Shown one piece after another: positions 1,085 through 31,734 of a DNA stretch of 64,000 bases. The notes under the pieces are model-generated. The model worked only from the letters and a program-made list of their open reading frames with translations. It did no database searches and was not told the origin of the DNA. The stretch lies in IMG/VR virus record IMGVR_UViG_3300044731_002410; one strand, given 5' to 3'. Position 1 is the stretch's first letter. Each line of letters opens with the position of its first letter. Made by a program: the position numbers and the translations under genes. The DNA is from an uncultured virus (IMG/VR IMGVR_UViG_3300044731_002410) (lineage: Duplodnaviria; Heunggongvirae; Uroviricota; Caudoviricetes).

Positions 1085-1097
1085 GGAGTAATCGATC

Positions 1098-1733: not shown

Positions 1734-1780
1734 CCTAAAACAAGTGAGAATCTAGAAGAATAAAGAACGACCTTGAGACC

Positions 1781-2234: not shown

Positions 2235-2612
2235 CGCGGGTACGGAGTGTCGTGGGTTTCAATGGGTAGGAAACCTAAAGCGTTGAATAGCTCAATTTGA
2301 AACAGCACCCATCTGCCCTGATTGGACTTCCAAAAGAGGTTTTTACAGCGGCGCGAACTCAGACGAGACAGCCAACATGACAATTAGGCGCGAAGATTCG
2401 AGGCCGAATCAATGTGACATGACATGGCGACTTCTGTCAGCAAACACAGGTTCGCCTGCTTGTTGCAATGGTGGACTCGTGCAGCCTTCAACTCATACGT
2501 CAGTGTTCGATAGTCTTTTGTGAGATTTAATCTCTTAAGTTAGTCTTGATTTTGCCTAACATGTACAATTCAGGTATATGAAAATCGGTTTTTTCTCGAA
2601 AGGAGTAAGCGC

Positions 2613-12414: not shown

Positions 12415-15400
12415 CTACTTTCCAACCCCCCGATTCACCTCCCGCATCACTTCCTCAATTTGTTGATCGATGACCTTCACACGATCCTGCCAGCCGGGAT
12501 CAGCGCGCAATTGCTCTTCCCTCCTCAGTCGCCTTAGTTTACTGACGGCCGACTCAGCCTGATTGCCAAGCCCGATTTGATCAACAAGCGGCTCTTGCTT
12601 TCTAAAGCTTTCTGCGTCTTCGCCTGCTTTCATGCGCCCTTTGTATTCGTGCTCGATCTGATTCAAACGTTTGATGTTCTTGTAAAAGAGCTCGGACTCA
12701 GCCGATACGCCCTGCGTACTGCCATAAAGCCGCCCCAGTAACGGTATCTTGTACGCCGGTAGCTCATCGCCTGTGAAGGGTGCCGAAATCGTTTGAGCCA
12801 ACTTACTAATCTCGCGCCCTACGCCGCCTGTGAGCTGACCGATCACATAATCGATTTGATCAGGCGTTGGACTCCATGCGCCTGGCTGATAGGCTGTGCC
12901 GCCTGAGATTCGGTTTAGTGCTTCTGCGATAACCTTGGACCAAGGCGTGGCTGAGTCCTTTACGAGTGCGGTGCCTGGTTGTGGGTTAAGCGGGTTGTGG
13001 TTCTCACGGTAAATCGGCCTGCCCGTCCAGTCCTGGTTTTGTGCCAGAGCAACTGCCGGATCTGCAACGGTCGGTGTGACAACTTGCGAGATGCTTTGGG
13101 TGCCACCAAGCGGATTAAAAGCATCAAGTAATACTTGGAGCAGTTTGCCTAATTGCTTTGCCGGTGTGTGGTCTCTGCCACTAGCCATCATTTCAACCGA
13201 GAGCCTTCCGATATTGGGTAAGAAGTGAAAGCCTAAGGGCAAGGGAAGCGATAAGTACTCGGTTGTAGAGATTGGAATGATGAGATTCTTTTCTTTGACA
13301 AATTCTGGAATCTTCTCCCAGGCATCATCACCATCATCACCACCGCCCATAATCGCCATGGCAAGCAAGGTGTTCACAGCACCTAGCATCACCCCACCCA
13401 ACATGATCTTGCGACCAAGCGGGCCTTTGAGTGTTTGCGCCATACGCGCTGTGCCTTGGATTGAGGCGTTAAAGAAGGCATACAGTGCCCCGATCTCGCG
13501 CGATTGCCTGCCCTTACGATTAAAGTTAACCGTCAGGTTCTTAGCAAGGCTTGCAGCACGCTCTTGACTTAGTCCCGAGTTCAACGCCACATCGAAGGCT
13601 GAAAGACGCACGGCGTTTTCCATGGCTTCGTTATAGTCTGAGAGCCAATCAAGTACCGCATGAGCAGCTTTGCTTGCCGCCCCTCGATCAAGCGCTGCGA
13701 GTTCGCGAGCGAGAGCATCGGCACGTTCTTTGGCATCGGCAAAAAGATCGCGATAGCCTGTGGTGCCCCCTGCCGCTTGCAGTTGCTGCCAACGATTAGC
13801 CCAATGGGCTGCGGGTTGATCTTGCGAGGCTGATGACACACCTTCACGCTCGGTGCGATAAATCGCTTTGAGCGCAGGCCAAACGTTTGCTGCGACCTCT
13901 TTTTCCTTACCTGCTATCGCCGTCGTGCTGAGATTTAAAAGACCCGATTGCAGATCACGTGCAAAGTTAATGATTCCAAAGATCGGGTTGTATTGGGTGT
14001 TGATGGATGCAAACCAACGTGTGCCTTTTGCGATGAGGCTAATGGCTGCATGTAAATCACCCACATCTAAGTTTTTAATCGATTGTGCAAGTCTTAAAGC
14101 CTCGGGGTTTCGCTCATTAAACGTGATCGCTGCATCTTTGCCGCCAATGCGAAGCATCACCACATAGGGCAAGTTTCTATAGTTTGGATCCACTATCGTG
14201 CGAACAGTGTTCGTCATCGGATCAAGCACACGCGCAGTCGGCGGCTTATCCACGGCCCAAAGCGAGCTATCTGGGTTTTGCGCAGCCATTAAGTAGAGCT
14301 TTTTCGTGACCCGGTCTTTTTCACCGCGGGTGAGTGCCGTTTCGCGCTGCTGCGCGATATGACCCAGGATGTTGGTGACTTGCTCTTTGCTGCCCACACG
14401 TTGTCTTGCAGCAGCACCTTTCACACTAAAGCCAAGTCCTACAGCGTGTGCGGTGCTTGTGGGGTGTGCCTCATCGCGATGTAATGGCACGTAGTAGTCA
14501 TAGGCTTGGCGCCAGGCTGCAAGCGTTTCTGCATCCATGAGCCCATAGGCATCTAAAAGCGTCAGTGTTTTCTCATTGATGGCATCAACAAGTGCTGCGG
14601 CTGCCTCAAAGCTTGGAAGGCTCGCCTTATCAATGCCAGCAATGACTTGCGCCGCTTCAGCATCAGACATCCCAGAAAGCGCTAAGCGCTCTTCTTCGGT
14701 ACCTTTAAAGGCCTGTGCCATCGCCCAGCGCTGTTGGCGCTCGTAGGCATGCGCCAAGGATTCCTCTATCGCCTGGGCACTCGTACCCGAGCTTTTGGCT
14801 GCTTGTAAGGCGCGCTCAAGCGAAGCAACGTTGGCTGCGGCTTCTTCTCGATAGGCTTCAAGCTCGGCTTCTGAAGGGTTACGTTTAGCCATGGCGGCAT
14901 TGGCTTCGGGTGCATGCCGAGCGTGCAAGTAGCGCTCAAATTCTTTCAGAGCAATGCCTGCGTCATGCAAGCTTTGAAGTAATGGTTTTAGCTCATGGCT
15001 TAAAAACTGCTGCGTTCTGAAAGCGACCCGCTTGTGAAAGAGCTCTTCGCCCAAGTAAGCATCATTAAGATCGGTGATCACACCACCCAGCGCTTGGATC
15101 CGATCTCGGATGCGTTTTAGATCGATGTACTTATCTTGAAACTCATAAAGCAGTGCATCGATTGCTTGTGGGCTTATCAAGTTCGCCAGACGTGTCTTAA
15201 GCGCTTGCCAGCGATTGGGTAATTTTGGTGTTGGTGGGTTTGATCTTGGTGACTTTAGAACTGGTGTGTTCGGTTGATTCGGCTCAGGTGTTGACGTCTT
15301 TTCTTCCGAGTTGCCTTGCGGCTTTTTGCCACCCGAGCGATCTAAATCATTGAGCGTGGTGTTCGGAAAAGTAATCTCACTCGCTGAAAAGTCCATCAAC

Positions 15401-18400
15401 ATGCGAGACGATAAAAAGTACTCGCTCTCCCCGCTTGTCTTGGAGGGATCAAGAATCTGCTTGAGTGCTTTTAAAAGCGGTGCATCCGATGCAAGCCCTA
15501 AGATCCCCTTGACCTTCTCTATCATCTCAGAAAGCCACACAGCGATCTGCTTAAAGATACGGTCTTTTGCATCAAAGCGTCGTGCAAGGAGCGCTGAAGC
15601 GTTCACTGCCCAGTACTCAGACGGGTTGACGAGCTGATAGTGATCAGCATAGTTAAGCGGCCCATCAAGCATGGCAGCCTGTAATTGGGCATGCGCACTG
15701 CGATCACCGGCAAGTGCCAGAGGGACAAGCGAGAGTGCCTGGCGCTCTTCGCTACCAGCCACTTCAAGTGCTCGGGTGTAGGCTTGGGCCCACGCTTGTC
15801 TGATGCCCTCTTGCATCGCTTTGGGCATCATGCGTTCAGCGTGATGTAAGAGCTCATGCACCGCAGTCTCTCTTGCATCAGCGCCCTTAAAGAGCCGCAT
15901 GAGTTCTGCTGTCGGGTTGTATTGGCCTGCCGTGCCGTCCGATTTTGGCGTTTGAATGCTGATCGCAAGATTGGTTGCAAGCGCTGGGTTTTGATCAAGC
16001 GCCCAAAAGGCAAAAGCCACCGTTTCGGGTTCTAGATCACCTTGGCGTTGGGCGCGAATCAGTCGCTCACGTAATTGCTGCTCACCGCGCTGGCGCGGCT
16101 TAACAGCGCGCTTATTTGCCTTGGTCTGCACGACCGCATCAAGCTCACCTGCAAGCCGTCTGATCCTGACTTCAAAGTCTTGCGGACTTATCGATCCATC
16201 ATCAAGCTTGGTAATAAGACCTTGAAGACGTCTTGCCGCTTGCACTTTGGGGGTGGGCTTTTCTTCATACCCATCAAAAAGATGTCGCATGCGCCGCTCA
16301 AGTGCTTTTCTCGATAAGTCATTGACCGTGCCTTGATCGCGTGGCATGTGGCCTTGATTCACAGCACTGGTTCTTGATGCAACATCAATCACATCAAGCA
16401 AGCGAATATCGAGTCTTGCAAGTGCAGTGGCAAGATTCGACTGCCCATCAAAGTCAATCGCTGCATCGGGATTAGCAATGATGGCCGCACCCGCTCCTGC
16501 TTCGGATGCGGCATTGACCAAGCGATCAAAGCGCTGATCGATACGAAGCGAGTTTGCCTCTTCAGGTTTGATCGGTACAAAGGCTGACACACGCTGCTGG
16601 CTGTCGGTAAATAAAATACCTGGGGTATCGGGTGGTGCGATCGAGCGCATGATCGACATCGCACTATCAGGACTTGTAATCGCAGGCATCAATGCGTTTT
16701 GCCGAAGAATGGTGCGCTCAACAATCGGCACACTCACAGGTGTCTTACCTGTGATCAGTGCGCCTTCAAGCGGATTGCCTTTGTCATCAACCGCTTCAAA
16801 GCGGCCTTGATCGTTAGTGCCAGGTTCTACACCGATAGCAGCCACCCCTTGCCATTTCACGCTCGATGCATCAAAGGTAGAGCTGATTGCGCGACTGAGC
16901 TGTTGATCGGCTCGTGATAGCGTTGAGATACCACTTGGGTGATTGTGTACACCCCAAGCTTTTGCAGCGCCTTCTATTCGCAAGGCCTCGGCAAGTAGCG
17001 TGTTGGGATAAACCGATGCTTGATTAAAGGCCCCTTTAAAGCTTCCGATGACCGCAAGTGGCTTACCTACCTGATCAGTAATAAGCACATCAAAGTGTTC
17101 CACCGCATACTCACCAAGTGCTGCGAGTGCAGAGGCTGCATCGGTCCAGTTTTGAATGCGATCAACAGGCAAACTTCTTGTACCGACTTGCACGAGTTGA
17201 GAGCTGTAGTGATAAATGCCAGGCAAATAGGGGTCGGGGCGAAGACTAAGGCGGGGTTCAATGCTCGGGCGAGGTTCACCACTTTTCTCTGCGCCTGCTT
17301 GGGTCGATCCAGACTTTGGATCGTTATCGCTTCGTTTTGATGATCGCTTTACCCTGCCCTTAACTGCTACGGGCAAATCTTGCTGTCCACTCAATGAATC
17401 GGGAAAGAGATCTGCGGTGACGCTTTCAGGCGAGAGATCAAAACCTGCTAAGGCTTGGTTAGGCCCATCGGGTTGGTGCACCTTATAGACCGATTCTTCT
17501 TCTGATACACCAGGCTGATCTTCTGCCGGTTGCGTAATGCTTTGAAGGTTATCAAGTGCACTAGGTGCATCACCAAAAAAGCCAGGCTCAGGTTTGGTGT
17601 GCATCGCTTGACCCACAAAGGCTTTGAGCTTTGCAGCAGCTTTATCTTTGGCAACAGGTCTTGTTAGAAATTCACCTTGATAAAAGACTTTAACGAAGGC
17701 TTGCACCGACTCACTTGGGGGCTGGCCGGTTTGCAGATCAGGCTGGCGAAGTAATTCATAAAGCGATCGGCGCTCTTGCCTGGCACGCTTAATCAGTCCC
17801 ACCGCATCCATTAAATCCTTGGTGACATCTTGCTGGGGGTCAATCACACCAACGCGCGCTGAGTCCCGCATATTGGCCCACTGCCCTGCTACTTGCTTTA
17901 AGGCCTCACCAATCCCCTTGATATCGGTATCCATCGAATCGAAAAGCTCAGCGACCAAATCACTATCATCAAAGGCGGCTTGCGCAAGTGCTGCCTGAAT
18001 ACGTGTTCGGCCAGCAGGCGATAAGTGGCCTTGCGCTGTCATGAGGGTTGCAATGTCTTGACCAGAGCCCGCAAGTTTGCCCACAAAGGCGCGCACAAAG
18101 TCTCGGTTATCAGCACTTGATACATCACCTTCTTGATAGGCAGACAATACGCTTGAGTCCATCAACTGAGCATCTTGCCTTGCAAGTTCCACAGGCGACA
18201 TCCCCAGGCCCTGGCCTTGACTCTTTTGTGCCATGTTGGCGGTATTGCTCTGCTCGCTATAAACACGGACAAGCACGGGGTTCGGTGTCAGTGCAATCGC
18301 TGCGGGGTCAATCCCGTGATTGGCAGCATCGGAGACAAGCTCTGCTTGATAGATCGCAGCTTTGCCTTGCTCATAGGCACCACGCAAGCCTGCAACACGA

Positions 18401-19941
18401 CCATTATTTAGTGCTTTGAGTGTGCCTGGCTGCTCGGACGAAATGCGCGCATTCACCGAGCCATCAAGATTATGTGAGGCTTGCACGGCATCGGCTGAAA
18501 CGACGGCATACCGAAAAGGTACCCTTTGGCCATCAGCCATCACTGCGATATCGGATTTACCAAAGTGGTGCTCTGGAATCGCGCTTAGATCGTCGCCTTG
18601 AGCAAAGACCATCGGTGCACCAGAGTCAGGTGTGCGGCTTGGTCCTAAGCGCAGGTAATCGGGTGCTCTTGCGATCGATTGCATTTGAGCCACTGATGCA
18701 AGCCGCGATCGATCTCGATTTTGTAGATTGGAATCGGCGCTCGAAATTTGATCAGCTTGGCTTTGATCCGTTGTACGTTGATCAGCTGTACGTTGGTTAG
18801 CTGCACTTTGATCAGCGCTTAAAGCTACGGCATCACTTTCGATGACCTGACTTGGTAGAACGCTCTGATCATTGTTACGCGGCGTCTGATTGATCGGATC
18901 TTGTCGGCTTGCGTTAATTGAAGGGTTCTGCGGCTCGGCACTCGGTTGCGGTGCATTGACCGGTGCATAAGTTGGTTCAGCGTCTAGAGGCCTCTGATTA
19001 GCTTGCCTCACCGACCACAGCGCTTGCGGCACACTTTGCGATAAGCCTGCAGCCGATTCAAGCACGGCATCGTAAATATCAGGCTTACCGGTTGCGGCAA
19101 GCTCACCGAAGTACTCGCCCGTGCCCTCGCCTACGGTTTCAAGCGCAACACCGGTGCCAAGCTGAGCCGCACGCATTCCAATCCCAGGCGCCGATCGACC
19201 TGCAGCAGCGCTTGCTCGATTAAAGGTTTTTGCGAGCTTGCCGCCAAGCCCGAGTGTGGCTGCATCGATACCTGTAATCACACCGCCTTTGATGGCACCT
19301 TCTCGAAGTGCGTCAGAGCGTTCACTTTCTGTGAACCCATCAGCAGCTTTATCGATCGCTTTAGAGCCTGTTTCAAGGGCTGTATTGCCAAGAAACATGC
19401 CACCGAGAAAGCCAGCCGTACCAAGTACGGGGACTGCAATGGGTGCGAATGGGCCCGTTAGTGCGCCAAGTGCCGCACCGCCTTTAGCCCCTGCAATCCC
19501 AGTACCTAGCGAGACGGCAGTATTGGGTAGCTGACTTGCTAAAAACTGTGCACTGCCAGATTTGTTATCCAGCATGGCAGCGCCCACATTACGTATTGCT
19601 GAGAGCACGCCTGGCTCCGTATCAAGTGCTTTGCGTCTGGCAATCTCATCCATCAGAGCGCGCTGTGCCGAAGGCTGCTCAGTGACGGCGGCTCGGTCAA
19701 CGCCCGCCGTTTGCTCAACAGCGGCGCGATCATTTAAGGCGGTATCAAGCGATGCTGAAAGTGCTCGGCCCGTGCTCTTAGCACCTTGCCAAACCGCAGT
19801 CCCCAGATCGCTTACTTCGTCGGTAAAGCTGCGCGTCTTTGGCGCAATCGAAATGCCCGCTTCAGCGAAAAGATCCCGGCCCCCTTGCGCATCGCGGCGA
19901 GAAAGTGTGATTCCGGCTTCTTGAAAGAGATCGCGAGGCAT
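12415..19941 (-). CDS. Large polyvalent virion/ejection protein (ParB-like, JAB/RadC, zincin HExxH, C-terminal LPD38-like)
   Basis: LQNRDRSR...YAVVSAD...NNGR; HNHPSG..S..D; VHELLHH; NLTVNFNRKG..LYAFFNASIQG; NQDWTGRPIY. Confidence 0.8.
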   Translation of the reverse strand: MPRDLFQEAGITLSRRDAQGGRDLFAEAGISIAPKTRSFTDEVSDLGTAVWQGAKSTGRALSASLDTALNDRAAVEQTAGVDRAAVTEQPSAQRALMDEIARRKALDTEPGVLSAIRNVGAAMLDNKSGSAQFLASQLPNTAVSLGTGIAGAKGGAALGALTGPFAPIAVPVLGTAGFLGGMFLGNTALETGSKAIDKAADGFTESERSDALREGAIKGGVITGIDAATLGLGGKLAKTFNRASAAAGRSAPGIGMRAAQLGTGVALETVGEGTGEYFGELAATGKPDIYDAVLESAAGLSQSVPQALWSVRQANQRPLDAEPTYAPVNAPQPSAEPQNPSINASRQDPINQTPRNNDQSVLPSQVIESDAVALSADQSAANQRTADQRTTDQSQADQISSADSNLQNRDRSRLASVAQMQSIARAPDYLRLGPSRTPDSGAPMVFAQGDDLSAIPEHHFGKSDIAVMADGQRVPFRYAVVSADAVQASHNLDGSVNARISSEQPGTLKALNNGRVAGLRGAYEQGKAAIYQAELVSDAANHGIDPAAIALTPNPVLVRVYSEQSNTANMAQKSQGQGLGMSPVELARQDAQLMDSSVLSAYQEGDVSSADNRDFVRAFVGKLAGSGQDIATLMTAQGHLSPAGRTRIQAALAQAAFDDSDLVAELFDSMDTDIKGIGEALKQVAGQWANMRDSARVGVIDPQQDVTKDLMDAVGLIKRARQERRSLYELLRQPDLQTGQPPSESVQAFVKVFYQGEFLTRPVAKDKAAAKLKAFVGQAMHTKPEPGFFGDAPSALDNLQSITQPAEDQPGVSEEESVYKVHQPDGPNQALAGFDLSPESVTADLFPDSLSGQQDLPVAVKGRVKRSSKRSDNDPKSGSTQAGAEKSGEPRPSIEPRLSLRPDPYLPGIYHYSSQLVQVGTRSLPVDRIQNWTDAASALAALGEYAVEHFDVLITDQVGKPLAVIGSFKGAFNQASVYPNTLLAEALRIEGAAKAWGVHNHPSGISTLSRADQQLSRAISSTFDASSVKWQGVAAIGVEPGTNDQGRFEAVDDKGNPLEGALITGKTPVSVPIVERTILRQNALMPAITSPDSAMSIMRSIAPPDTPGILFTDSQQRVSAFVPIKPEEANSLRIDQRFDRLVNAASEAGAGAAIIANPDAAIDFDGQSNLATALARLDIRLLDVIDVASRTSAVNQGHMPRDQGTVNDLSRKALERRMRHLFDGYEEKPTPKVQAARRLQGLITKLDDGSISPQDFEVRIRRLAGELDAVVQTKANKRAVKPRQRGEQQLRERLIRAQRQGDLEPETVAFAFWALDQNPALATNLAISIQTPKSDGTAGQYNPTAELMRLFKGADARETAVHELLHHAERMMPKAMQEGIRQAWAQAYTRALEVAGSEERQALSLVPLALAGDRSAHAQLQAAMLDGPLNYADHYQLVNPSEYWAVNASALLARRFDAKDRIFKQIAVWLSEMIEKVKGILGLASDAPLLKALKQILDPSKTSGESEYFLSSRMLMDFSASEITFPNTTLNDLDRSGGKKPQGNSEEKTSTPEPNQPNTPVLKSPRSNPPTPKLPNRWQALKTRLANLISPQAIDALLYEFQDKYIDLKRIRDRIQALGGVITDLNDAYLGEELFHKRVAFRTQQFLSHELKPLLQSLHDAGIALKEFERYLHARHAPEANAAMAKRNPSEAELEAYREEAAANVASLERALQAAKSSGTSAQAIEESLAHAYERQQRWAMAQAFKGTEEERLALSGMSDAEAAQVIAGIDKASLPSFEAAAALVDAINEKTLTLLDAYGLMDAETLAAWRQAYDYYVPLHRDEAHPTSTAHAVGLGFSVKGAAARQRVGSKEQVTNILGHIAQQRETALTRGEKDRVTKKLYLMAAQNPDSSLWAVDKPPTARVLDPMTNTVRTIVDPNYRNLPYVVMLRIGGKDAAITFNERNPEALRLAQSIKNLDVGDLHAAISLIAKGTRWFASINTQYNPIFGIINFARDLQSGLLNLSTTAIAGKEKEVAANVWPALKAIYRTEREGVSSASQDQPAAHWANRWQQLQAAGGTTGYRDLFADAKERADALARELAALDRGAASKAAHAVLDWLSDYNEAMENAVRLSAFDVALNSGLSQERAASLAKNLTVNFNRKGRQSREIGALYAFFNASIQGTARMAQTLKGPLGRKIMLGGVMLGAVNTLLAMAIMGGGDDGDDAWEKIPEFVKEKNLIIPISTTEYLSLPLPLGFHFLPNIGRLSVEMMASGRDHTPAKQLGKLLQVLLDAFNPLGGTQSISQVVTPTVADPAVALAQNQDWTGRPIYRENHNPLNPQPGTALVKDSATPWSKVIAEALNRISGGTAYQPGAWSPTPDQIDYVIGQLTGGVGREISKLAQTISAPFTGDELPAYKIPLLGRLYGSTQGVSAESELFYKNIKRLNQIEHEYKGRMKAGEDAESFRKQEPLVDQIGLGNQAESAVSKLRRLRREEQLRADPGWQDRVKVIDQQIEEVMREVNRGVGK

Positions 19942-21309: not shown

Positions 21310-22679
21310 TACAACCCCAGCCTTCTCTTCACCTCAGCCTCGGTAATTCCGTATTTCTTAGCTGTGGCAGCGATATCTTCTGCTGTAACGTTATCCAACT
21401 TAGCACCGGGTGATGCACCGCTTTTCACCTGATCGGGAAAGAGATAGCGCATGGCTGCATCGGTTGCCTCTTGCGCCCGTTGCGCGTTACCCATGTTGGC
21501 TGCAAGTGCCTTACCGAAAATATCGGCTCGAATGCGCTCAGGCGACTCGGTCTTAAGGGTTGTCGCCATACGCAAGCCTTCTGCCATATCTTTGGCAAGC
21601 CCCGCGCGAATATAGGCCGCAGCTAAGCGTACTTCGGCCGGTTGATCCTTGCCTGCATCAGGCGTTACGGGAATCACACCGCGTTTGACCGCATCAAGTT
21701 CAGCCGGTGTTGCGGTCGGATTCTTTTCTAGATAGTAAAGCGATGCGGCATCTTGTTTGCGCTTGGCATCTGCCCGATCCTCTTCTTCAAAACGCAGGCG
21801 TTTGCCTGCTCGCTGATCGGCGTTACGGTTGATCACAGCGTTTTGCTCTTTAGCTTGCGCATCATTGGCTGAGGTCACAAGTCGCCCGGTTTGCGTGTTG
21901 CTTCGAGTTATGAGATCTGCGATCTCCTTATCCACCGAACTCACAAGCGCCATCGACTCCGCACCAAGGCCAGCATCAGCCATGCGCTTTGCTGCGACGA
22001 GTTGTCTTGCCTGGGACTCGGTAAGCTCAATGGCTTTGCCAGGCTTGCCTTGATGGTCGGTTGTTAGAAACTGAAAGCCGTTTGTAGTCTTTCCGGTAAA
22101 AAGTAACGGTATCTGACTCTGGTTGGTGTTCAGCAGCGCTGCTTGTGCCATCACTTGATCGGTAGGTAAACGCGCTGCCTCATCCAAATAGCTTTGTTGC
22201 TTAATGCCTCGTGTTTCGCCTTCAAGTGTGCGCAGGGCATTGACATCACGGTTAAGAATCGCTGCATCAATCAAACGACGATTGAGCCCGAGCCTGTAGT
22301 CCGATGAGCCCGCATCGACTGCTTTTCTTACGGTGAGCGCAGCTTCGTTACTGGCTGCCGACCCACCTAGTGAAGGTGGTAGGGGTTGACCATTAAGCAC
22401 TGCGGTATTTGCTGCTTCAAAGTCAGCATCAAGTGCAGCGTTGGTTGCTCCTCGATCAATCCCTTGGGTGTAGTCACGAATGCCAGATAAGACGGTTGAG
22501 AGATCGCCTTGACGCTTCGCTTCACTTCGCGCCTGGTCGAGTTGAAGCTGCAAGCCTTCTCGCTGCATTGCCCAGCGTTCATCCTCACGCTTGCGTTGTG
22601 CTTCGCGCTCAGCTTGAGCAAGTGCTTGGTTATAGGCGCCCTGACCAAAGGCAAAGCCTGATTGAAACGCTGCCATCAC
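21309..22679 (-). CDS. Phage internal virion/ejection protein
   Basis: Ala/Gln-rich helical ORF in the ejection-gene position. Confidence 0.6.
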   Translation of the reverse strand: MMAAFQSGFAFGQGAYNQALAQAEREAQRKREDERWAMQREGLQLQLDQARSEAKRQGDLSTVLSGIRDYTQGIDRGATNAALDADFEAANTAVLNGQPLPPSLGGSAASNEAALTVRKAVDAGSSDYRLGLNRRLIDAAILNRDVNALRTLEGETRGIKQQSYLDEAARLPTDQVMAQAALLNTNQSQIPLLFTGKTTNGFQFLTTDHQGKPGKAIELTESQARQLVAAKRMADAGLGAESMALVSSVDKEIADLITRSNTQTGRLVTSANDAQAKEQNAVINRNADQRAGKRLRFEEEDRADAKRKQDAASLYYLEKNPTATPAELDAVKRGVIPVTPDAGKDQPAEVRLAAAYIRAGLAKDMAEGLRMATTLKTESPERIRADIFGKALAANMGNAQRAQEATDAAMRYLFPDQVKSGASPGAKLDNVTAEDIAATAKKYGITEAEVKRRLGL

Positions 22680-22693
22680 CTTATACCCATGAT

Positions 22694-23515
22694 CTATCGT
22701 CTCGGCGGCATGAGGCTTCCCAAGGCCCAGCTCGTTCCAACGCCTGCTGCAGCGCCAAGGATCGTATTTAATGGATTACTCGATGCAGCGATTTGGTCTT
22801 GAGCACTTTTAAATTGCGCTTGAGCGTTAAACATCCCCGTGGCATTCGCACCCATGCGCCCAGCAACATCCGAGGCCATGCCATAGCCTGCATTCATCCC
22901 TGAAGCACCCGCATTGGCAATGTTCACCCCATTGGCTGCAAAGCCTGCCCCAGCCCCCGTTGCAGCCATCCCCATGGCGGGGTAGCCCGCAAGTGCATTG
23001 GTTGCTCGATCGGTTAATGCATAGCCTTCTTGTCTGGCACTTCGTCTTGCCATGTTCTTTGAACCCGCTAAAAGTGCAGCAGCACCAAGCGTTGCCCGTG
23101 GATCATTGGCTTGGTTGGTAAAGGGCGATATGCCACGCCTTGCCTGCATGCGCGCGGTTTGATCTTGAGCAAGCGAAATCGCCGACTGCGCATCGGCGCC
23201 TGCTTCAGCTGCAAATTGATCCGCGCGCTGCTTGGCATTAAAGCCTGTTGCATCGGACACCAATTGATCCTGAGCGTTCGATAACAGATTGCGCCTTGTG
23301 AGCATCCAGCTGCGATCAGCTTGCGAGTCCGTGACCGCTTGTCTTGCCGTATCAAGTGCAAACTGGGTTTGCTCTTTTTGTAGCGGTAGCATCTCATTGG
23401 CGTTTGCCATGATTTGCTTAATCACATCGTCTTGGACACCCATGGAGCGCAATTGCGCATCAATGAGGCGTGGATCGGGCGGTGGTGCTGACGATGAGCT
23501 CTTAGATCCCATCAC
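22694..23515 (-). CDS. Phage DNA ejection protein
   Basis: MGSKSSSSAPPPDP start, Gly/Ala-rich with hydrophobic C-terminus, typical of podovirus ejection proteins. Confidence 0.65.
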   Translation of the reverse strand: MMGSKSSSSAPPPDPRLIDAQLRSMGVQDDVIKQIMANANEMLPLQKEQTQFALDTARQAVTDSQADRSWMLTRRNLLSNAQDQLVSDATGFNAKQRADQFAAEAGADAQSAISLAQDQTARMQARRGISPFTNQANDPRATLGAAALLAGSKNMARRSARQEGYALTDRATNALAGYPAMGMAATGAGAGFAANGVNIANAGASGMNAGYGMASDVAGRMGANATGMFNAQAQFKSAQDQIAASSNPLNTILGAAAGVGTSWALGSLMPPRR

Positions 23516-23939
23516 TCACCTCGCTTCCAATAAATCGGCAGTCACGCTTCCAAAGTACATACAGCACAACATCACCGCCATCGGCTGCAGCACCTTGAAG
23601 TCTTGCCTCTTCGCGAAAGCCTAAATGTTCATTAAAGCGTCGTGCCTCGAGATTCGATGCATCCACATAGCCAGAAACCCGTTCGACGCCACAGATCAAA
23701 AAGGCATAGGCAAAGACAGCAAGTAGGTAATCTCGGTGGAGCCAACGCCTGCCAGGTCTTGCAGCCACATGCATCCAAAGGTTCTTACCGTTATAGCCTT
23801 CAAAAAGCACGCCTGCCACGAGCTCGCCATCGCGTGTAAGTCCTAGGGCAATCATGTCTTCAGCAAGCTTTAAGCCTGGCAGATAGCTACGCATAAAGGC
23901 AGCAACGCGCGTGAGCGAAAAGTCAAAAGCATGGGTCAT
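23502..23939 (-). CDS. Phage virion-associated GNAT-fold protein
   Basis: VFAYAF..CGVERVSG...NEHLGFREEARL; located before ejection genes. Confidence 0.75.
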   Translation of the reverse strand: MTHAFDFSLTRVAAFMRSYLPGLKLAEDMIALGLTRDGELVAGVLFEGYNGKNLWMHVAARPGRRWLHRDYLLAVFAYAFLICGVERVSGYVDASNLEARRFNEHLGFREEARLQGAAADGGDVVLYVLWKRDCRFIGSEVSDGI

Positions 23940-23949
23940 TCGCTCACAT

Positions 23950-23961
23950 TGCCATGCTTGG
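23950..23961 (-). promoter_or_regulatory. 12-bp motif copy 2
   Basis: Exact tgccatgcttgg 10 bp upstream of the GNAT gene. Confidence 0.7.
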
Positions 23962-23995
23962 GGTAAGGTAGCAGTGCTAAACCTAAGGCCTGACC

Positions 23996-24298
23996 ATGCA
24001 AATTACTGTTGAGCAATCCGCGACGCTGACATGTGCGACAAGTGGCTCACAGCTGCGTGCAGTCGTGCAACAAAAACTTCGCGCCTTTGAAGACGAGGTC
24101 CAGTTTGTTGTTGTGTCTGTTTTCAAGTCGACCTCGGCAACATCCAATGCGAGCTTTGAGGTCACCTGTCGCATCGGGACACGTTCGGGCTTTGCAACCG
24201 GAACCTTTCATGGCAAAGGGGCAAGTGCTGTGTTTGCGCTTGAAGAAGCGCTTCGTGATGTTATAGAGCGCCTTAAGCGCCAGCCCAAAGAGCCCTAG
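23996..24298 (+). CDS. HPF/RaiA-like small protein, paralog 1
   Basis: 100 aa; MQITV...LRAVVQQKLRAF..V..V.V...FEVTCRI...A..ALEEAL..V..RLKR fits the HPF secondary-structure pattern. Confidence 0.55.
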   Translation: MQITVEQSATLTCATSGSQLRAVVQQKLRAFEDEVQFVVVSVFKSTSATSNASFEVTCRIGTRSGFATGTFHGKGASAVFALEEALRDVIERLKRQPKEP

Positions 24299-24303
24299 GT
24301 GGT

Positions 24304-24443
24304 GGGGTGCACCGAGAGACTACGAAGACCCTCGGTGCGGTGGAAAGTAAGGCAGATTCCGTGCTTTCCGTCACGGCAAAGGAGGTGCCTGCTTAAGACG
24401 ATGCACCAGCAAGCACGAAGTGGTCAGGATTAGCATCTGCCAG
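24304..24443 (+). ncRNA. Candidate structured RNA element, copy 1
   Basis: Stem GCACCGAG/CTCGGTGC, 37-mer 24341-24377, AGGAGG, distal CATCTGCCAG. Confidence 0.55.
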
Positions 24444-24680
24444 CGTACCGCCAACTCGTTACGTTTGGTGCCCTCGAAGTGTGTCTCAGGTACGCTCGGT
24501 TTGGTACTGTCCATGCAAAAAATACGGTCTTTCCTCAGCGCGACGTCTCGATCGGGATAAAAGCTTTTGCTTCTCCCAAGCACTGCACAGTTGCTGGGAT
24601 GGTAATTGGCAACTTCCTCTTAAAACACATCAAGACCAACGCGGTTGGTCAATGTCAAAGTCAAATGCACAGCGCTTTTC

Positions 24681-24983
24681 ATGCAAATCATCATTCAGTT
24701 CAATACCGATTTGTCAGAGAAAGCTGATGGACAACAATTACGAAGAATTGTTCAACGGCGGCTTTTCAAGTTCAAATCCAAGATCAAGCTGACTCAGATC
24801 AACCTTGAAACGCCTCCAAAACCCTTAGTCTCGGCTCGCTTCCAGGCAAGCTGCCTGATAGTTACCCCATACGATCATCAGCTTGGGCCTTATTTAGCAT
24901 TCGGTGATGCCGCAGAGCGTGTAGTCCTTGATTCACTCGAAGCAACAGTAAATGCACTTGGCTGGCAATTCTTTAATACCTAG
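24681..24983 (+). CDS. HPF/RaiA-like small protein, paralog 2
   Basis: 100 aa from ATG 24681; MQIII...QLRRIVQRRLFKF..KI....I.L...FQASCLI aligns by eye with paralog 1. Confidence 0.55.
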   Translation: MQIIIQFNTDLSEKADGQQLRRIVQRRLFKFKSKIKLTQINLETPPKPLVSARFQASCLIVTPYDHQLGPYLAFGDAAERVVLDSLEATVNALGWQFFNT

Positions 24984-24985
24984 AA

Positions 24986-25131
24986 GGGGCGCGCAGCGAG
25001 CACTCTTACGCCCGCTGCGCCTTGGAAAGTAAGGCAGATTCCGTGCTTTCCGTCACGGCCTACAGGAGATGCAGAACGCTTCAAGGCCCCCACTCGGTCC
25101 TGCAAAACCAGCGCACGCTCACATCTGCCAG
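24986..25131 (+). ncRNA. Candidate structured RNA element, copy 2
   Basis: Stem GCGCAGCG/CGCTGCGC, identical 37-mer 25023-25059, AGGAGA, distal CATCTGCCAG. Confidence 0.55.
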
Positions 25132-25402
25132 GCTAGTGAACCGGCAAGTACATGGAGAGGGGTGTCTACAACATCCGCACCGGCATTTCACACAGTACAA
25201 GTATGCTTACGGCGATTTGTCATCGACTCGATAACGTTTAATCGAATGCCATCAGTCTGGGTGAGCGTCGGGCTTAGTCTCACACCGGCGCCCTACCTCA
25301 TGAGCAAACGCTCCAAGGGCAATCAGACGATCACTCGAATCAAGCCAAACCGCCTGCCGGTGATAAGCTCCCGCAACGTTACCACTATCAGGGGATAAAT
25401 GA

Positions 25403-25651
25403 ATGCTCCAGCTTCGGCCCAATTGTGAGTGTTGCGATAAAGATCTGCCACCTGAAACCACCGATGCCCGGATCTGTTCCTTTGAATGCACATTTTGCGC
25501 TGATTGCGCTCAAGCGGTGTTGCAACACCGCTGTCCTAATTGTGGCGGTGAACTTGTAGCGAGGCCTCGCAGACCCGCAGATAAGCTTGCTAAATATCCC
25601 GCATCGATCGATAGGAAGCTTAAACAGCAGGGTTGCCAAAAAATTGCCTAG
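25403..25651 (+). CDS. DUF1272 Cys-rich protein
   Basis: MLQLRPNCECCDKDLPP...ICSFECTFCADC...CPNCGGELV.RP.R. Confidence 0.88.
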   Translation: MLQLRPNCECCDKDLPPETTDARICSFECTFCADCAQAVLQHRCPNCGGELVARPRRPADKLAKYPASIDRKLKQQGCQKIA

Positions 25652-25669
25652 CCCTCAATGGGTTAACTC

Positions 25670-25834
25670 TTGAACGATTCCAACCCTTCTAACCAAACGC
25701 CAAATGATGCCAAGCTCATTCGCGAAGCCAAAAAGAGACGCCGCAGGCGCAACTTTTTGATCTATCTTGGATTCGAATTCGTAGTGCTTATCATCGTGAT
25801 TTGGGATGACATCGCACGCTCGCTAGGTCGATAA
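25670..25834 (+). CDS. Small single-TM membrane protein (54 aa, below ORF-track cutoff)
   Basis: TTG start; AKKRRRRR followed by NFLIYLGFEFVVLIIVIW. Confidence 0.45.
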   Translation: MNDSNPSNQTPNDAKLIREAKKRRRRRNFLIYLGFEFVVLIIVIWDDIARSLGR

Positions 25835-26317
25835 CGCCTCGCCACCTGGTTGCACTGGCCAAACTACCGCATAAGGATCACCCTGCATCGGTACATCACG
25901 AAGTGCTTGCCTGTATTGCTGCCAGGCGTTGAATCGCTCAACCCCTAATCGGTCGATGGCAGACATCGTATCGGTCCAGTCTGAGCTTTTAAGCTTTTCA
26001 TCGCGCACCTGGCGCACCATCCACCAAGCAAGCGCTTCATCCTGCACCCAAGCCTTTTGCCCATAATCAAACCGCATCATGGGACCTGGCGCATCGCCTT
26101 TATCGATCACCTCACCGTCTTGCACATAGGACGAAAAGGCAACGATGGGCCGATCGCAGTCAAGTCTTAGAAGGCCCGCAGGCGTTGGTTGATCCTCACA
26201 CTGCGCACTTGTGCCCACAAAGGCAAAGCGAATACATCCCTGATCATCATAAAAAACAACACTTTGGGGTTGCTGCGATCTTTCTTTGGTCGTTACGTCA
26301 TTCATAGCATCGCTCAT
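25823..26317 (-). CDS. Tail fibre assembly chaperone
   Basis: RDEKLKSSDWT...AWQQYRQALRDVP...VVWP; ATGA overlap with the upstream gene. Confidence 0.8.
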   Translation of the reverse strand: MSDAMNDVTTKERSQQPQSVVFYDDQGCIRFAFVGTSAQCEDQPTPAGLLRLDCDRPIVAFSSYVQDGEVIDKGDAPGPMMRFDYGQKAWVQDEALAWWMVRQVRDEKLKSSDWTDTMSAIDRLGVERFNAWQQYRQALRDVPMQGDPYAVVWPVQPGGEALST

Positions 26318-28533
26318 CGCATCGCTCCTATGGCAAGCAAGATGATGTCGTAGTATGCGCCGTTGGCCGCACCCCCTGCGAAGGTAATCGGGGTGTTGGC
26401 GGGCGGCGTGAAGTGCGCCACGCACACCAGTTGCTGACTAGTATTGGGGTTATAACTTGCCAGCCGGTAGAGCCAGGTAAATTGGCCATTAAGCGAATAG
26501 CCAATCCCTGCGTCTGTTAACGGCAACGGACCAATAACACCTGATGACCACTTCATGGCCATCCATAGCATCACAGGGGATGACACCGGTAAATTCATAT
26601 CAAGGCTTGTAAAGACCACCTGCGTGCCAGAGGCCATCACGGGAATCGTGACTGCATTACCCTTGATGCGAAGCGTATCAATGGCAGCATCGGCAATCTT
26701 GGCCGTTGTAATACTCGCCTGACCAATCCTTGCTGCATCAAGTGTTCCCGAGCCAATCACCGCAGCACTTAGGTTTGCAATCTTGGCATCAAGCGAACCC
26801 GCTGAGATCCGATCGGCACTGAGGGTGCCTGCATTGATCTTATCGGCACTAAGGCTTGCGATCTTCGCATTATCAATGGCAGCATCAGCGATTTTTGCAT
26901 TGGTGATCGTGCCGTTCTTAATATAGCTACTCTCGATATAAACACCAGCAGGAACCGAAACGCCATTAATGGTCTGCGCGCTGGTTGTTACGCTAAAAGG
27001 AACGATGGGGGGAAGCGCTGGTCCGTCTGGATTGGCAATTGAGAAGCGATCGGCGCGAACAATAAAGTCTGAAACCGTTGCCCCATTCACTTCCGTTGAT
27101 GCAAGCCCAAAGCCTGCCACATACCCATTGGCATCGATCTTAACGGTGTACTGACCCTTAAGACCTGTGATGCTTGAGGCAGAAGCCGATAACGATTGCT
27201 CAACCGTAACGCCACTGCCCCCTGCAGTATTAAGCCTTGCCGTGACTGCGCTGTAGTCCTGTGCTGCTGCAGCAGCCGCGTTTGCAGCATGGGTTGCAGA
27301 AACCGATGCTTGATTTTTATAGCTAGATGCGTTGGCTTCACTCGTTGAGGCTTGCGTTGCTGCATTGTTTGCACTGATCGCCGATTGCCCAGCTTCTGTC
27401 GCTTTGGTGCTTGCACTACTTGCCGATGTAGCTGCAGCGCTTGCAGAAAGCGCTGCGTTATCGCGTGCTGATTGGGACGCGACCTTGGCAGCGTTGGCAG
27501 CAGTCGATGCCACTTCGGCACTCGTGGCATAACTTGAAGCATTCGAGGCTGCGCTTGCTGCCGCGTTAGCTGAGCCCCCAGCATTACTTGCCGCTTGGGA
27601 AGCAGTCGTTGCACTTATTGCTGCTTGGGAGGCAGCGCCTTCAGCGCTTGTTGCAGATTGAGAAGCGGCTGTCGCTGAGGTTGATGCACTGCCTGCTGCA
27701 CTTTGTGCGTTTGTGTTGGCAAGTTCAGCAGCGTCTTTAGCCGTTTGAGCACCGCTTGCAGCTAAAAGTGAAGCGGTTTTTGCTGCAATGGCATCAGCAG
27801 CACTGGCACTTGCAAGCGCCGCGTTGGTGGCTGATGCGGTGGTATCGCCATAGGTCGCAAGCAACCCATTCACACGCGTAACAAGCCCTGAGGTTGGATC
27901 ATCAATCAAATCAATGCGTTGGCCTAGACTTTGAAACAACTCAGTTTCTGTAATCGAGCCTTGCAGCACTTCAAGTAACGCTTGAACATCTTCACCCGTG
28001 CGCGCTTGAAGCCCGTTCGTGCTCCCTGCTGGTTGCGACTGCACCCCATCAACACTTTCCCATGTGATCCAAAGCCGCCAGGTCGTTGCCGGGTTCGAAG
28101 CAAGTGCAAAGACAGCACCCGAAAATTGAGAAAGCTCTTTGGCTTGCGCAAAACTCGGCAAAGGGTCATTGTCATGGACGGCAATGCCAAAAAGATGGGT
28201 GCGCAAATGCCCATGACCTTGGGTGTAGGTTGGAAGGTGATGCTCAACCAACACATGGCTTATGGCAGCACTTACCTTAAAGCCAGTCGGTATAGGTGGT
28301 GGTGAGCGATCTAGGGGTTCTTGGGTGGGTTTTAATTCAATGGGGGGACTATCTTTGGCTGACCACTGAAAACCTTTTTTAAGCGTCACAATCCCTGCAT
28401 CAACAAGATCACGAATCGTAAGTCCCCGATCAAGCGGATCGCCTTGCCTTCCCAAATAAGTCATCAACGTCTCACGCACACGCTGCGAAAAATTAGGTGC
28501 TGTGGTTGCGGGCAAATCCGTACGTTGATTCAT
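26314..28533 (-). CDS. Tail fibre / tip protein (Ala-Ser coiled region, DUF1983-like)
   Basis: QYTVKIDANGYVAGFGL..FIVRADRFSI and ITNAKIADAAI repeats. Confidence 0.8.
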   Translation of the reverse strand: MNQRTDLPATTAPNFSQRVRETLMTYLGRQGDPLDRGLTIRDLVDAGIVTLKKGFQWSAKDSPPIELKPTQEPLDRSPPPIPTGFKVSAAISHVLVEHHLPTYTQGHGHLRTHLFGIAVHDNDPLPSFAQAKELSQFSGAVFALASNPATTWRLWITWESVDGVQSQPAGSTNGLQARTGEDVQALLEVLQGSITETELFQSLGQRIDLIDDPTSGLVTRVNGLLATYGDTTASATNAALASASAADAIAAKTASLLAASGAQTAKDAAELANTNAQSAAGSASTSATAASQSATSAEGAASQAAISATTASQAASNAGGSANAAASAASNASSYATSAEVASTAANAAKVASQSARDNAALSASAAATSASSASTKATEAGQSAISANNAATQASTSEANASSYKNQASVSATHAANAAAAAAQDYSAVTARLNTAGGSGVTVEQSLSASASSITGLKGQYTVKIDANGYVAGFGLASTEVNGATVSDFIVRADRFSIANPDGPALPPIVPFSVTTSAQTINGVSVPAGVYIESSYIKNGTITNAKIADAAIDNAKIASLSADKINAGTLSADRISAGSLDAKIANLSAAVIGSGTLDAARIGQASITTAKIADAAIDTLRIKGNAVTIPVMASGTQVVFTSLDMNLPVSSPVMLWMAMKWSSGVIGPLPLTDAGIGYSLNGQFTWLYRLASYNPNTSQQLVCVAHFTPPANTPITFAGGAANGAYYDIILLAIGAMR

Positions 28534-30276: not shown

Positions 30277-31734
30277 TCATACCAGTGCAAGATGCTTGGC
30301 TGCAGACGGCAAGCCTGGTCTTAACCCATGACCCATCAGCAGTGCGACGTAGGAGAAGCCATGGAACATCCCAAAGCGTCGCTGCATCAGGTCACGAAAG
30401 GCGGCATCCTCAATCAGCGCCTCATCGTTACCTTCAAAGGCTTTGATAACGCGCTCAAGTGCTTCGGGCCTGCTCATGCGGCCATAGTCACGCCAAAAGG
30501 CACTGTCCGTGCGAGCACTTAATAGATAGTGGCTTTGCACAAAATCGAGCACATCGTCGTGTTGCTCACGCATCTCCGCGTTATAGCGATCCCGCAAGGC
30601 ATCGGGCGCCACATGGGCTGCATGAAGGTATTGCGCTAAAAGCATCGCAGCGTAATGACCCAACGCTATGGCCGTGCTTTCGATGGGCTCGCAAAAAAAG
30701 CCACTCAAACCGATGGCCACCACATTGTGATGCCACAGCTTGGGCCGAAAGCCCGTCTTGAAGCGCACAAGGCGCGGCTCGATCGCTTCGGGCGCATAGC
30801 CCCAGCGTCGGGTGAGGTGCGAGATGAAATCGGCTTGCGCTTTCTCCGTATCCACATAGCGGCTTGCATGGATATAGCCCGTGCCGATGCGGCTTTGAAG
30901 CGGAATATGAAACACCCAACCCTCAGGCAAGCCCTGGCAGTGGGTCAGATTCATGCGCTGTCTGGCGGGGTCCACGAAGGGGAGTTGCACCACCCAGGCC
31001 TGATCGACAAGGAGGCGATCAGCCACCGAGACCCATGGTGATTGCACCGCTTGAGCCAGTACGCCTGCAAAGCCTGTGCAATCGATGTAAAGATCAGCGC
31101 AAAGCGCATGACCCGCATCGATAAGAATGCTTGAAACCGCCCCACGATCATCGCAGTGCACCTGAGCAATCGTTGCATCAAGCACCTGAACGTTCTCGCG
31201 CGCAAGCACCTCTTGTTTAAGTAGCGCGGCGTACTTCAAGGCATCGATGTGAAAGGCACCGCCTCCGCCATGCGCAGCCACCCGGTAGCGCTCAAACCAG
31301 GTGCTTCGCTCGATAAAGCCCCCTTCAAGCTTGGCCCCTGCCCAGGTGTGCTCGGCAGCAAAGGCCCACTGATCGGGCGCCTGCGCAAGCGCCCCTGCGC
31401 GAAGGGCCGCCCCCAATCGGATCCGATCGATATCGGCAGCATCTAAAAAGGGGTGTAACCAGCGTGCGCCCTTTTCATAGAAATCCTCAAACGCAATCCC
31501 CAGTTTCACCGTGGCATCGACCGCGCGCGCCCAGGCCTCGGTTTGCAGGCTTGGCAGTGCCATCGCCTTATGGGCCAGGTGTAAGTGGGGAAGCGTACTT
31601 TCACCCACGCCAATGCTCGGGATCGTGCTTGGGTCGAGCACCGTGACATGCAGTGCGGGGTTGGCTGAGAGGATCGCCGCAGTCGACCAACCGGCCGTAC
31701 CACCGCCTGCAATGAGCACATGGCGCCTTACCAT
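30277..31734 (-). CDS. Tryptophan halogenase family flavin-dependent enzyme
   Basis: GGGTAGW, IGVGEST, DATVKLGI (catalytic Lys position), IDCTGF, GWVFHIPL..RIGTG, FCEPIESTA. Confidence 0.88.
   Translation of the reverse strand: MVRRHVLIAGGGTAGWSTAAILSANPALHVTVLDPSTIPSIGVGESTLPHLHLAHKAMALPSLQTEAWARAVDATVKLGIAFEDFYEKGARWLHPFLDAADIDRIRLGAALRAGALAQAPDQWAFAAEHTWAGAKLEGGFIERSTWFERYRVAAHGGGGAFHIDALKYAALLKQEVLARENVQVLDATIAQVHCDDRGAVSSILIDAGHALCADLYIDCTGFAGVLAQAVQSPWVSVADRLLVDQAWVVQLPFVDPARQRMNLTHCQGLPEGWVFHIPLQSRIGTGYIHASRYVDTEKAQADFISHLTRRWGYAPEAIEPRLVRFKTGFRPKLWHHNVVAIGLSGFFCEPIESTAIALGHYAAMLLAQYLHAAHVAPDALRDRYNAEMREQHDDVLDFVQSHYLLSARTDSAFWRDYGRMSRPEALERVIKAFEGNDEALIEDAAFRDLMQRRFGMFHGFSYVALLMGHGLRPGLPSAAKHLALV

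Follow-up and report, generated by a model that had tools for sequence, protein, structure and literature searches.

The raiA motif RNA is a structured non-coding RNA of unknown function that lies beside genes of the HPF/RaiA family. Here we describe a comparable setting in a 64,000-nucleotide (nt) stretch of DNA (hereafter the window) from an uncultured virus of the Caudoviricetes (IMG/VR record IMGVR_UViG_3300044731_002410), in which two copies of a structured RNA-like element follow two genes for small proteins resembling hibernation promoting factor (HPF). Unlike the raiA motif, the element has no match in Rfam, is likely encoded on the strand opposite to the gene, also occurs without the gene and occupies an accessory slot of a phage. 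On balance, we favor the view that both copies are members of a compact, pseudoknotted RNA family that is not catalogued and that a small clade of temperate, Bcep22-related freshwater phages carries, in one or two copies, as accessory cargo in the slot between the tail assembly chaperone and GNAT genes.

The put RNAs of phage HK022 are two stem-loops directly behind early promoters. Like the element, these antitermination RNAs (putL and putR) are present as two copies per phage of a compact multi-helix RNA read with its operon, and the copies share a fold and a core while differing in sequence. In contrast, the element would form a three-way junction with a pseudoknot, lies in the late region, where no relation to a promoter or terminator was found, and is absent from a near-identical phage. 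In architecture, the element resembles pistol and other small self-cleaving ribozymes, in which a hairpin of 5 base pairs (bp) carries a 6-nt loop that forms a 6-bp pseudoknot with a downstream strand. Small phage ribozymes also combine an invariant core with freely varying peripheral hairpins and occur as several nearby copies in phage intergenic DNA. Unlike pistol, the element gave no Rfam match, and its helix between hairpin and pseudoknot has the partner strand on the 5' rather than the 3' side.

Comparison with known families

At the gathering score, Rfam 15 gave no match in the 64-kb window, and at E ≤ 10 the interval 23900-25500 returned just SNORD30 (E 7.9), inside the second HPF-like gene. 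Five of the related loci introduced below (L042, L006, L028, L039 and L020), searched at E ≤ 5, gave nothing beyond a tRNA and a weak match to Tymo_tRNA-like (E 0.24), which coincide in L039 at a site away from the element. Thus raiA, terC/yybP-ykoY and nhaA-I, with which a comparison had been proposed, did not match, and neither did pistol, hatchet, twister, HDV-like or HEARO RNAs. ARAGORN found no tRNA or tmRNA genes in the window. Over ten thousand candidate structured RNAs have been reported in viruses and phages (PMC10690425); the numbers of two viral contigs do not occur in six supplementary files of that study, and its files 1, 2 and 4 lay outside this search, so the element could be listed there. 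As far as these searches reach, the element family is undescribed in Rfam and in the literature searched.

Two copies with an invariant core

Direct reading of the sequence recovered every motif of the original prediction, which had described a duplicated RNA-like element. Copy A starts with GGGG (24304-24307) and T, followed by the stem GCACCGAG (24309-24316)/CTCGGTGC (24331-24338); copy B starts with GGGG (24986-24989) and C, followed by GCGCAGCG (24991-24998)/CGCTGCGC (25013-25020). An identical 37-mer comes next at 24341-24377 and 25023-25059 (two exact matches, 0.00 expected from 100 shuffles), and no third copy of it exists in the window at up to three mismatches. The 37-mer continues into AGGAGGTGC and AGGAGATGC in the two copies, and the distal CATCTGCCAG is found at 24434-24443 and 25122-25131. 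The complementary pairs GGAAAG/CTTTCC, CCGTG/CACGG and GGCAGAT/ATCTGCC are present as claimed, and the contrast that had been drawn between diverged flanking proteins (26% identity) and an unchanged RNA core holds.

Using an HPF-like protein profile, we identified 36 metagenome contigs (loci), and pattern scans together with a GNAT-based scan added two viral contigs, L042 and L067. A Hamming scan counted 41 core copies in the window and the 36 loci. A covariance model (R1), built from 12 copy-B type sequences, produced 43 minus-strand matches in 180,845 bases and, in the 64-kb window, just the two known copies. Scans of viral contigs with an exact 35-mer, a degenerate hairpin pattern and the 16-nt loop found two genuine contigs, a near-twin of the window and that of L042; 14 other loci matching the 16-nt loop lacked flanking complementarity and were rejected as chance matches. 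The near-twin (G001, a 29-kb viral contig) is the nearest record and is 100% identical across 23950-25450. No match was found when 23900-25700 was compared by blastn with 50,697 phage records. In the cultured relatives BcepIL02, Ralstonia phage Gerry and MW202489, the gap upstream of the GNAT gene measures 45-76 nt and holds no element, and R1 scores in these genomes reach at most 10 bits, inside genes. The element appears to be restricted to one narrow clade of freshwater phages.

Predicted fold and covariation

All full copies share, in plus-strand order, hairpin P1, the 37-mer, a linker, hairpin P3, a linker of 16-17 nt and CATCTGCCAG. The first linker retains just GGAG (CUCC on the minus strand), and the sequence of the 16-17-nt linker is unrelated between versions. 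Read 5' to 3' on the minus strand, the first half of the model consists of CUGGCAGAUG (the 5' strand of helix Pa), 17 nt, P3 and a stretch containing CUCC, and the second half of CCGUG-AC-GGAAAG-CACGG, A, AUCUGCC (the 3' strand of Pa), UUA, CUUUCC (the 3' strand of helix Pk), 3 nt, P1 and CCCC. Pa is predicted as a 7-bp closing helix (GGCAGAU/AUCUGCC) around a three-way junction, the arms of which are the variable P3 and the 5-bp Pb (CCGUG/CACGG). The GGAAAG loop of Pb would pair with CUUUCC just 3' of Pa, and this H-type pseudoknot is Pk.

Copy A covers about 157 nt on the minus strand (24299..24455; R1 match 24301-24449, 89.7 bits). Its Pa joins the complement of 24435-24441, after which the 17-nt linker follows, to 24351-24357; P3 pairs 24385-24392 with 24409-24416 and is followed by the CUCC linker, Pb pairs 24372-24376 with 24359-24363, Pk 24364-24369 with 24342-24347, and P1 24331-24338 with 24309-24316, ahead of the CCCC complementary to 24304-24307. 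The core module of copy B, also on the minus strand (24983..25142; R1 match 195.5 bits), has P1 at 24991-24998 with 25013-25020, Pk at 25024-25029 with 25046-25051 and Pb at 25041-25045 with 25054-25058 (both inside the 37-mer, 25023-25059), P3 at 25070-25077 with 25097-25104, and Pa formed by 25033-25039 and the distal strand 25123-25129.

Copy B has in addition an extension of about 100 nt, located 5' on the minus strand (25143..25239) and absent from copy A. It is kept at the nucleotide level in eight relatives (including L042, L009, L010, L018, L021, L024 and L028), and no reading frame within it is conserved among relatives. The extension contains a CCCCUCUC stretch complementary to the P3 loop and a further small hairpin (the ACCG...CGGT region, 25167-25186), in which both one-sided and compensatory changes occur; at the site of a window pair that is C.A on the plus strand and U.G on the minus strand, L042 reads CCGAG/CTCGG.

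The outer helices are replaced wholesale among the copies. P1 exists in four sequence versions (GCACCGAG/CTCGGTGC; GCGCAGCG/CGCTGCGC; GGCGC..GGGG/CCCC..GCGCC; and GGCG..CTGCGG/CCGCAG.CGCC) and P3 in three unrelated ones, with the pairing kept. We fitted an alignment of 32 distinct rows and 35 pairs (A6) to the structure of R1. In this alignment, 96.2% of 1039 cells pair and 15 of the 35 pairs change on both sides; none of 500 shuffles reached the observed value in four of five measures, and two of 500 did so for further pair types. Slid registers gave 34-53% paired cells, at most 52.5%. Compensatory changes are also seen within the core helices: Pk reads AGAACG/CGTTCT in the diverged copies of L038 and L039 (two compensatory pairs), and Pb reads CCGCG/CGCGG in L028. 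Copies that lost the distal CATCTGCCAG by deletion carry a mutated GGCAGAT loop, which became GTCATAT in L011-13, L016, L017 and L029 and GGCTGAT in L031; these mutations fit the loss of a pairing partner, short of proof.

Minimum free energy (MFE) and centroid folds of the copy A minus strand return Pa, P3, Pb and P1 (z-score -2.78). For a 258-nt extended copy B, RNAalifold proposed a rival fold made of nearly all invariant pairs, which is not distinguishable from the model. Several further points weigh against the proposed RNA. All sequences come from one narrow clade, and the covariation consists largely of a few wholesale stem replacements inherited by many rows. A6 had been fitted to the model's own structure. 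Pa has no trustworthy covariation, since its double changes stem from 3'-deleted copies force-aligned to unrelated DNA, and L021 breaks one Pa pair. Single-sequence z-scores are unremarkable (copy B, -0.87 on the minus and -1.40 on the plus strand; copy A, -2.78 and -0.96). A scan for promoters and terminators remained at chance level, with 2 against 1.2 and 3 against 2.1 expected.

Both pairings that had been proposed for the core, GGCAGAT/ATCTGCC and CCGTG/CACGG, are retained in the model; the second gained one compensatory change (L028), and the first gained none that can be trusted. The claim of a selected structured RNA-like element stands, with covarying stems around an invariant core. 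The core is identical except for one inserted base in L042 (the GNAT protein of which is 74% identical), while P1 and P3 are freely replaced; for this reason, the core is more likely to act as a specific binding or catalytic center than as a mere structural barrier.

The element and the HPF-like genes

The element had been described as a downstream companion of each HPF-like gene. Among the 36 loci, 33 could be assessed in this respect, and in 29 of them the element begins 3-10 nt past the HPF-like stop codon, intact in most. It is 3'-deleted in seven of the 29 (L011-13, L016, L017, L026 and L029), takes the form of a long hairpin in L028 and L031, and is diverged in L038 and L039. Four of the 33 loci (L015, L019, L025 and L032) have an HPF-like gene without an element: in L015, L019 and L025 it was lost by a deletion reaching about 25230 of the window layout, and L032 has another gene instead. 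Conversely, L042 holds a single element directly between the GNAT and chaperone genes with no plus-strand gene, and six loci (L006, L010, L014, L018, L022 and L024) have a second element about 250 nt past the first with no open reading frame (ORF) between them. In L042 and L028, the chaperone gene ends directly beside an element of the copy-B type. The single copy of L021 and the L042 copy are hybrids that combine the P1 of copy A with the distal part of copy B. Finally, L067, the GNAT protein of which is 98% identical to that of the window, has no element (best R1 score, 7.9 bits). The slot of L067 contains a 190-residue antisense gene (770-1342 on the minus strand of the locus) with YxGEFKDGxxxGxG-like repeat units, which look MORN-like by eye.

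From L042, the gene-less copies, the element-less HPF-like genes and L067, we infer that the element and the HPF-like genes are separate accessory cargo of one hypervariable slot. Their tight spacing would then reflect shared descent and recombination across the 37-bp identity rather than an obligate module. A purely cis role in the expression of the late operon is unlikely because L067 has no element. The idea of a functional unit with the upstream gene is therefore not supported: the element stands alone in L042 and in six gene-less second copies and is missing in four of 33 loci. Nor is a riboswitch for the downstream gene: whichever strand is read, the next gene and its distance vary between relatives, and a search of these regions gave no conserved expression platform. 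Neither a terminator nor a helix sequestering a Shine-Dalgarno (SD) sequence is conserved according to a terminator scan and inspection of the sequences.

L039 offers a view of this phage type inside a bacterial contig. A remnant occupies its positions 1-4490 and comprises an HPF-like gene and a diverged element, together with pieces of an integrase, of the virion protein and of the tail-fiber N-terminus. The remnant adjoins a tRNA gene (2714-2785, 70.3 bits) and lies between a cytochrome c1-like gene and gltX, an arrangement that points to a temperate lifestyle with integration at a tRNA gene.

Evidence from RNA libraries

Six riverine metatranscriptome runs contain 33-47% of the sampled words of 23950-25300. 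Assembled contigs of four riverine runs were placed on 22500-26700, and contig depth was summed per bin; bins with little or no cover were left uninterpreted. The depth of bin 24333-24473 was 190, 367, 65 and 20 in the four runs, and that of bin 25038-25178 was 1146, 306, 111 and 395, so that depth peaks on both element copies in four of four runs. The bins past the distal ends were lower (0.7-7 at 24474-24614 and 2.7-85 at 25179-25319); the bins of the second HPF-like gene had depths of 6-20 and the tail genes of 11-90. Single contigs of X17 showed a depth of 93 (25023-25182) and 30 (24341-24456) versus 6 for the contig of the second HPF-like gene.

These values are suggestive of a discrete, abundant RNA over the elements. 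Some properties of the data count against this view: they are assembled contigs with one depth figure each and no DNA control, in which strand and ends are unreadable, and conserved segments pool all strains, while RNA libraries can hold DNA. Candidate RNA ends, namely an Illumina adapter at 25034 (X15) and at 24455 (X16) and a contig end at 24456 (X17), were not used as evidence, because depth runs into the hundreds and strains branch at 24456, so that they need not be true RNA ends. Nor did we use the orientation of both adapters, which implies plus-strand first reads and would point to minus-strand RNA only if the libraries were dUTP-stranded.

The probable functional strand and possible regulation of the HPF-like genes

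The original prediction implied the plus strand, shared with the HPF-like genes. Among 25 distinct full-length rows, 29 cells hold G.U pairs valid on the minus strand only, versus three A.C cells; by our reading, this asymmetry corresponds to roughly nine independent events for the minus strand and three for the plus strand. Both unrelated P3 versions and the third P1 version contain just one internal mismatch each, a C.A when read on the plus strand but a U.G pair on the minus strand. The MFE is lower on the minus strand in 24 of 26 unique copies (mean -54.1 versus -49.2 kcal/mol). RNAalifold consensus energies are -93.3 (minus) versus -78.1 (plus), with -46.9 versus -40.5 and -50.8 versus -33.8 for subsets, and Pa, P3, Pb and P1 all reappear in the minus-strand consensus. 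In H-type pseudoknots, the tolerable length of a loop depends on the groove that it crosses. If Pb and Pk coexist, the minus-strand pseudoknot would cross its deep groove with a loop of 2 nt and its shallow groove with one of 11 nt, whereas in its plus-strand counterpart a loop of 2 nt would have to bridge a shallow groove of 6 bp. In L042, the simplest locus, all neighboring genes are on the minus strand.

Other observations speak for the plus strand. Some wobbles in L035 and L026 are valid on that strand alone, and the degenerate variant of L031 and the first copy of L028 is a 12-bp hairpin with two G.U pairs likewise valid on the plus strand only. The slot's accessory genes also read in that direction, and copy B has a slightly better z-score on the plus strand (-1.40 versus -0.87). 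Taken together, wobbles, MFE, consensus folding and pseudoknot geometry favor the minus strand, and this strand, on which the late genes lie and to which the HPF-like genes are antisense, is probably the functional one. With this preference, the AGGAG that had been read as SD-like is more likely the CUCC linker.

The same evidence bears on a possible, though unlikely, alternative in which the element is a plus-strand 3' element of accessory genes, that is, the 3' untranslated region of the HPF-like mRNA serving as a stabilizer, a terminator without a U-tract, or a regulatory switch. It would account for the position of the element, intact or degenerate, 3-10 nt past the HPF-like stop codon in 29 of 33 loci, for the plus-strand orientation of the other accessory genes in the slot, for the copy B z-scores, and for the degenerate L031 copy, which improves the plus-strand hairpin and has a U.G in its long P2 hairpin valid on that strand only. 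Against it stand the 29 versus three wobble cells, including the internal mismatch of both P3 versions, the greater stability of the minus strand, seen in the consensus fold as well as in 24 of 26 copies, and the 2-nt loop that the plus-strand pseudoknot would have to stretch over a 6-bp shallow groove. In addition, the element exists without an upstream plus-strand gene in L042 and in the second copies of L006-type loci, and no U-tract follows it.

If the RNA is on the minus strand, it would abut and overlap the 3' end of the convergent HPF-like mRNA. The prophage type I antitoxin RNAs RatA (for txpA) and SR4 (for bsrG) overlap the 3' ends of their toxin genes, and a cis-antisense RNA controlling the HPF-like gene could be organized in the same way. 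We give little credence to this mechanism. It agrees with the strand preference, with an element ending at the HPF-like stop codon in both copies, and with the apparent excess of element RNA over gene RNA, and the HPF fold hints at an inhibitor of translation, the amount of which might have to be controlled. However, the element persists without an antisense target (L042 and the gene-less copies), such an RNA does not need an invariant 47-nt core, and HPF-like genes also occur without the element. HPF-like proteins are not known to act as toxins.

DNA-level and coding alternatives

A function at the DNA level is very doubtful. The copies would then be cassette boundaries or recombination anchors, following a logic like that of integron attC hairpins or mosaic junctions, with the pairing selected in single-stranded DNA or not selected at all. 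Cassette-like variation is indeed present (gene plus element, gene-less element, and the hybrid copies of L021 and L042), deletions end in or beside the core (L011-13, L016, L017, L029 and L015/L019/L025), and G.T wobbles are tolerated in DNA hairpins too. Yet attC core sites (GTTRRRY/RYYYAAC) occur neither in 24280-24480 nor in 24965-25260, hence in neither copy. L067 exchanged its slot content without any element, the hybrids are explained by homologous recombination across the 37-bp identity with no dedicated site, and a raised depth in RNA libraries is not expected of a DNA site. Of the ORFs in the window, 20 large ones were scanned against PHROGs, and none of these was annotated as an integrase.

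Translation of the core, whether by read-through from the HPF-like gene or in a small ORF, is extremely improbable. The TAG stops of both HPF-like genes are indeed followed by 44 and 50 open codons (24299-24433 and 24984-25136), in which the 37-mer is read in the same frame (WKVRQIPCFPSR), but a 1-nt core insertion in L042, L028 and L031 breaks the frame, the genes of relatives stop with TAA (12), TGA (5) or TAG (4), the P1 replacements keep the pairing and not the peptide, and L042/L028 have other extension frames than the window group although the nucleotides themselves are conserved, so that the open frames after the TAG stops are probably a by-product.

Genomic setting and neighboring proteins

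Both elements lie in a plus-strand island (23996-25651) embedded in minus-strand phage structural genes. The island consists of a gene for 100 amino acids (aa), a non-coding stretch, a second 100-aa gene, another non-coding stretch and a DUF1272 gene. The first gene (23996..24298, plus strand) encodes HPF-fold protein 1 and runs opposite to the late genes as an accessory (moron) gene; the second (24681..24983, plus strand) encodes its paralogue, HPF-fold protein 2. The DUF1272 zinc-ribbon protein (25403..25651, plus strand; E 6.4e-30) is a further accessory gene of the slot. The slot is bordered by two conserved late-strand genes, which encode a GNAT acyl-CoA N-acyltransferase (phrog_4470; 23502..23939, minus strand) and a tail assembly chaperone (PF16778; 25823..26425, minus strand), and a tail fiber gene (26314-28533, minus strand) flanks the island on the chaperone side. 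The closest cultured relatives of the GNAT protein, at 40-46% identity, are from Burkholderia phages Bcep22, BcepIL02 and DC1 and from Ralstonia phages.

Elsewhere in the window, the PHROGs scan of 20 large ORFs identified portal, major head protein, terminase, primase and a 2508-aa virion protein. The latter (12415-19941, minus strand) aligns with the C-terminal third of the phrog_14770 profile, which has a length of 3427, and does so in phages of the Bcep22 type too. Within the virion gene region, a 485-aa ORF (30277-31734, minus strand) matches phrog_2928, annotated as tryptophan halogenase (E 5.5e-94). In the RNA contigs of three runs, 232 bases of the N-terminal part of the chaperone gene (25795-26028) are swapped for 33 others, representing a strain variant. 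A slot variant in L006 carries a 170-aa ORF (1226-1738, minus strand) that by eye resembles a toxin-antitoxin-type GNAT acetyltransferase. A terminator-like hairpin with a T-run is located at 25730-25753 (minus strand), just past the chaperone gene; if it is real, late-strand transcripts would end before the slot, leaving the elements dependent on read-through or on a promoter of their own.

The two HPF-like proteins are paralogues with 26% identity over 78 residues (E 3e-10). For the second gene, ATG 24681 is the most likely start rather than TTG 24645 of the ORF list, because its MQIIIQF parallels MQITVEQ of the first protein. Protein 1 was modeled with AlphaFold (predicted local distance difference test score of 85), showing a beta-alpha-beta-beta-beta-alpha topology. 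Its best PDB matches are all HPF/RaiA/YfiA/RafH proteins (7m4z_v, E 7.8e-5, template modeling (TM) score 0.75), and the nine PDB chains found at E ≤ 0.001 are all hibernation factors (TM 0.62-0.75). Under Pfam gathering scores, protein 1 stays below threshold for Ribosomal_S30AE (PF02482; 14.9 versus 23.7 bits) and for DUF7839 (17.7 versus 27), and protein 2 has no Pfam match. Judged from this model, the HPF/RaiA membership of protein 1 is valid at the level of the fold and not by the Pfam cut-off. The family is tiny, with 22 near relatives in a word search and 13 profile matches at E ≤ 0.001 among 1.84 billion representative proteins. A protein-based search of viral contigs and genomes found the near-twin contig only, plus a weak 43-residue match in a metagenome-assembled genome of Anaerolineae, and a literature search on phage-encoded hibernation promoting factors returned nothing relevant. 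Phage-borne proteins of the ribosome-hibernation fold are thus an almost unsampled family.

Proposed role and implications

The original prediction had offered an RNA switch or a protein-RNA module. What survives of it is the selected structured RNA, and the riboswitch for HPF-like genes and the obligate protein-RNA module are given up. In the explanation that we favor, a compact pseudoknotted RNA carried as accessory cargo, the RNA would be made with, or within, late-strand transcription and would persist as a discrete, compact and stable species resistant to nucleases. The 47 invariant core bases may provide a binding or catalytic center for a protein, a small ligand or self-processing, and the RNA would act autonomously, without regulating the adjacent HPF-like genes. 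We rank its putative activities as protein-binding or decoy RNA, then self-cleaving, then ligand-sensing.

A more specific proposal, which we regard as quite unlikely and put forward tentatively, is that the invariant core with its double pseudoknot (Pa, Pb and Pk) is the putative active center of a new class of small functional RNA serving as mobile phage cargo, either a self-cleaving ribozyme or an aptamer or decoy for a host factor. If the ribozyme version is true, late-strand transcripts would be cut at the borders of the inserted antisense genes, and if such a new class exists, the high depth in river metatranscriptomes would represent a stable RNA product.

A core kept base for base within outer helices that are swapped wholesale is the usual pattern of RNAs that have a specific site for binding or catalysis. 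RNA of the element seems abundant in natural RNA samples and is present in no catalogue. Accessory slots of phages are known for protein "morons", and here the cargo would include a compact RNA; its activity, once found, would add RNA to the accessory functions of phages.

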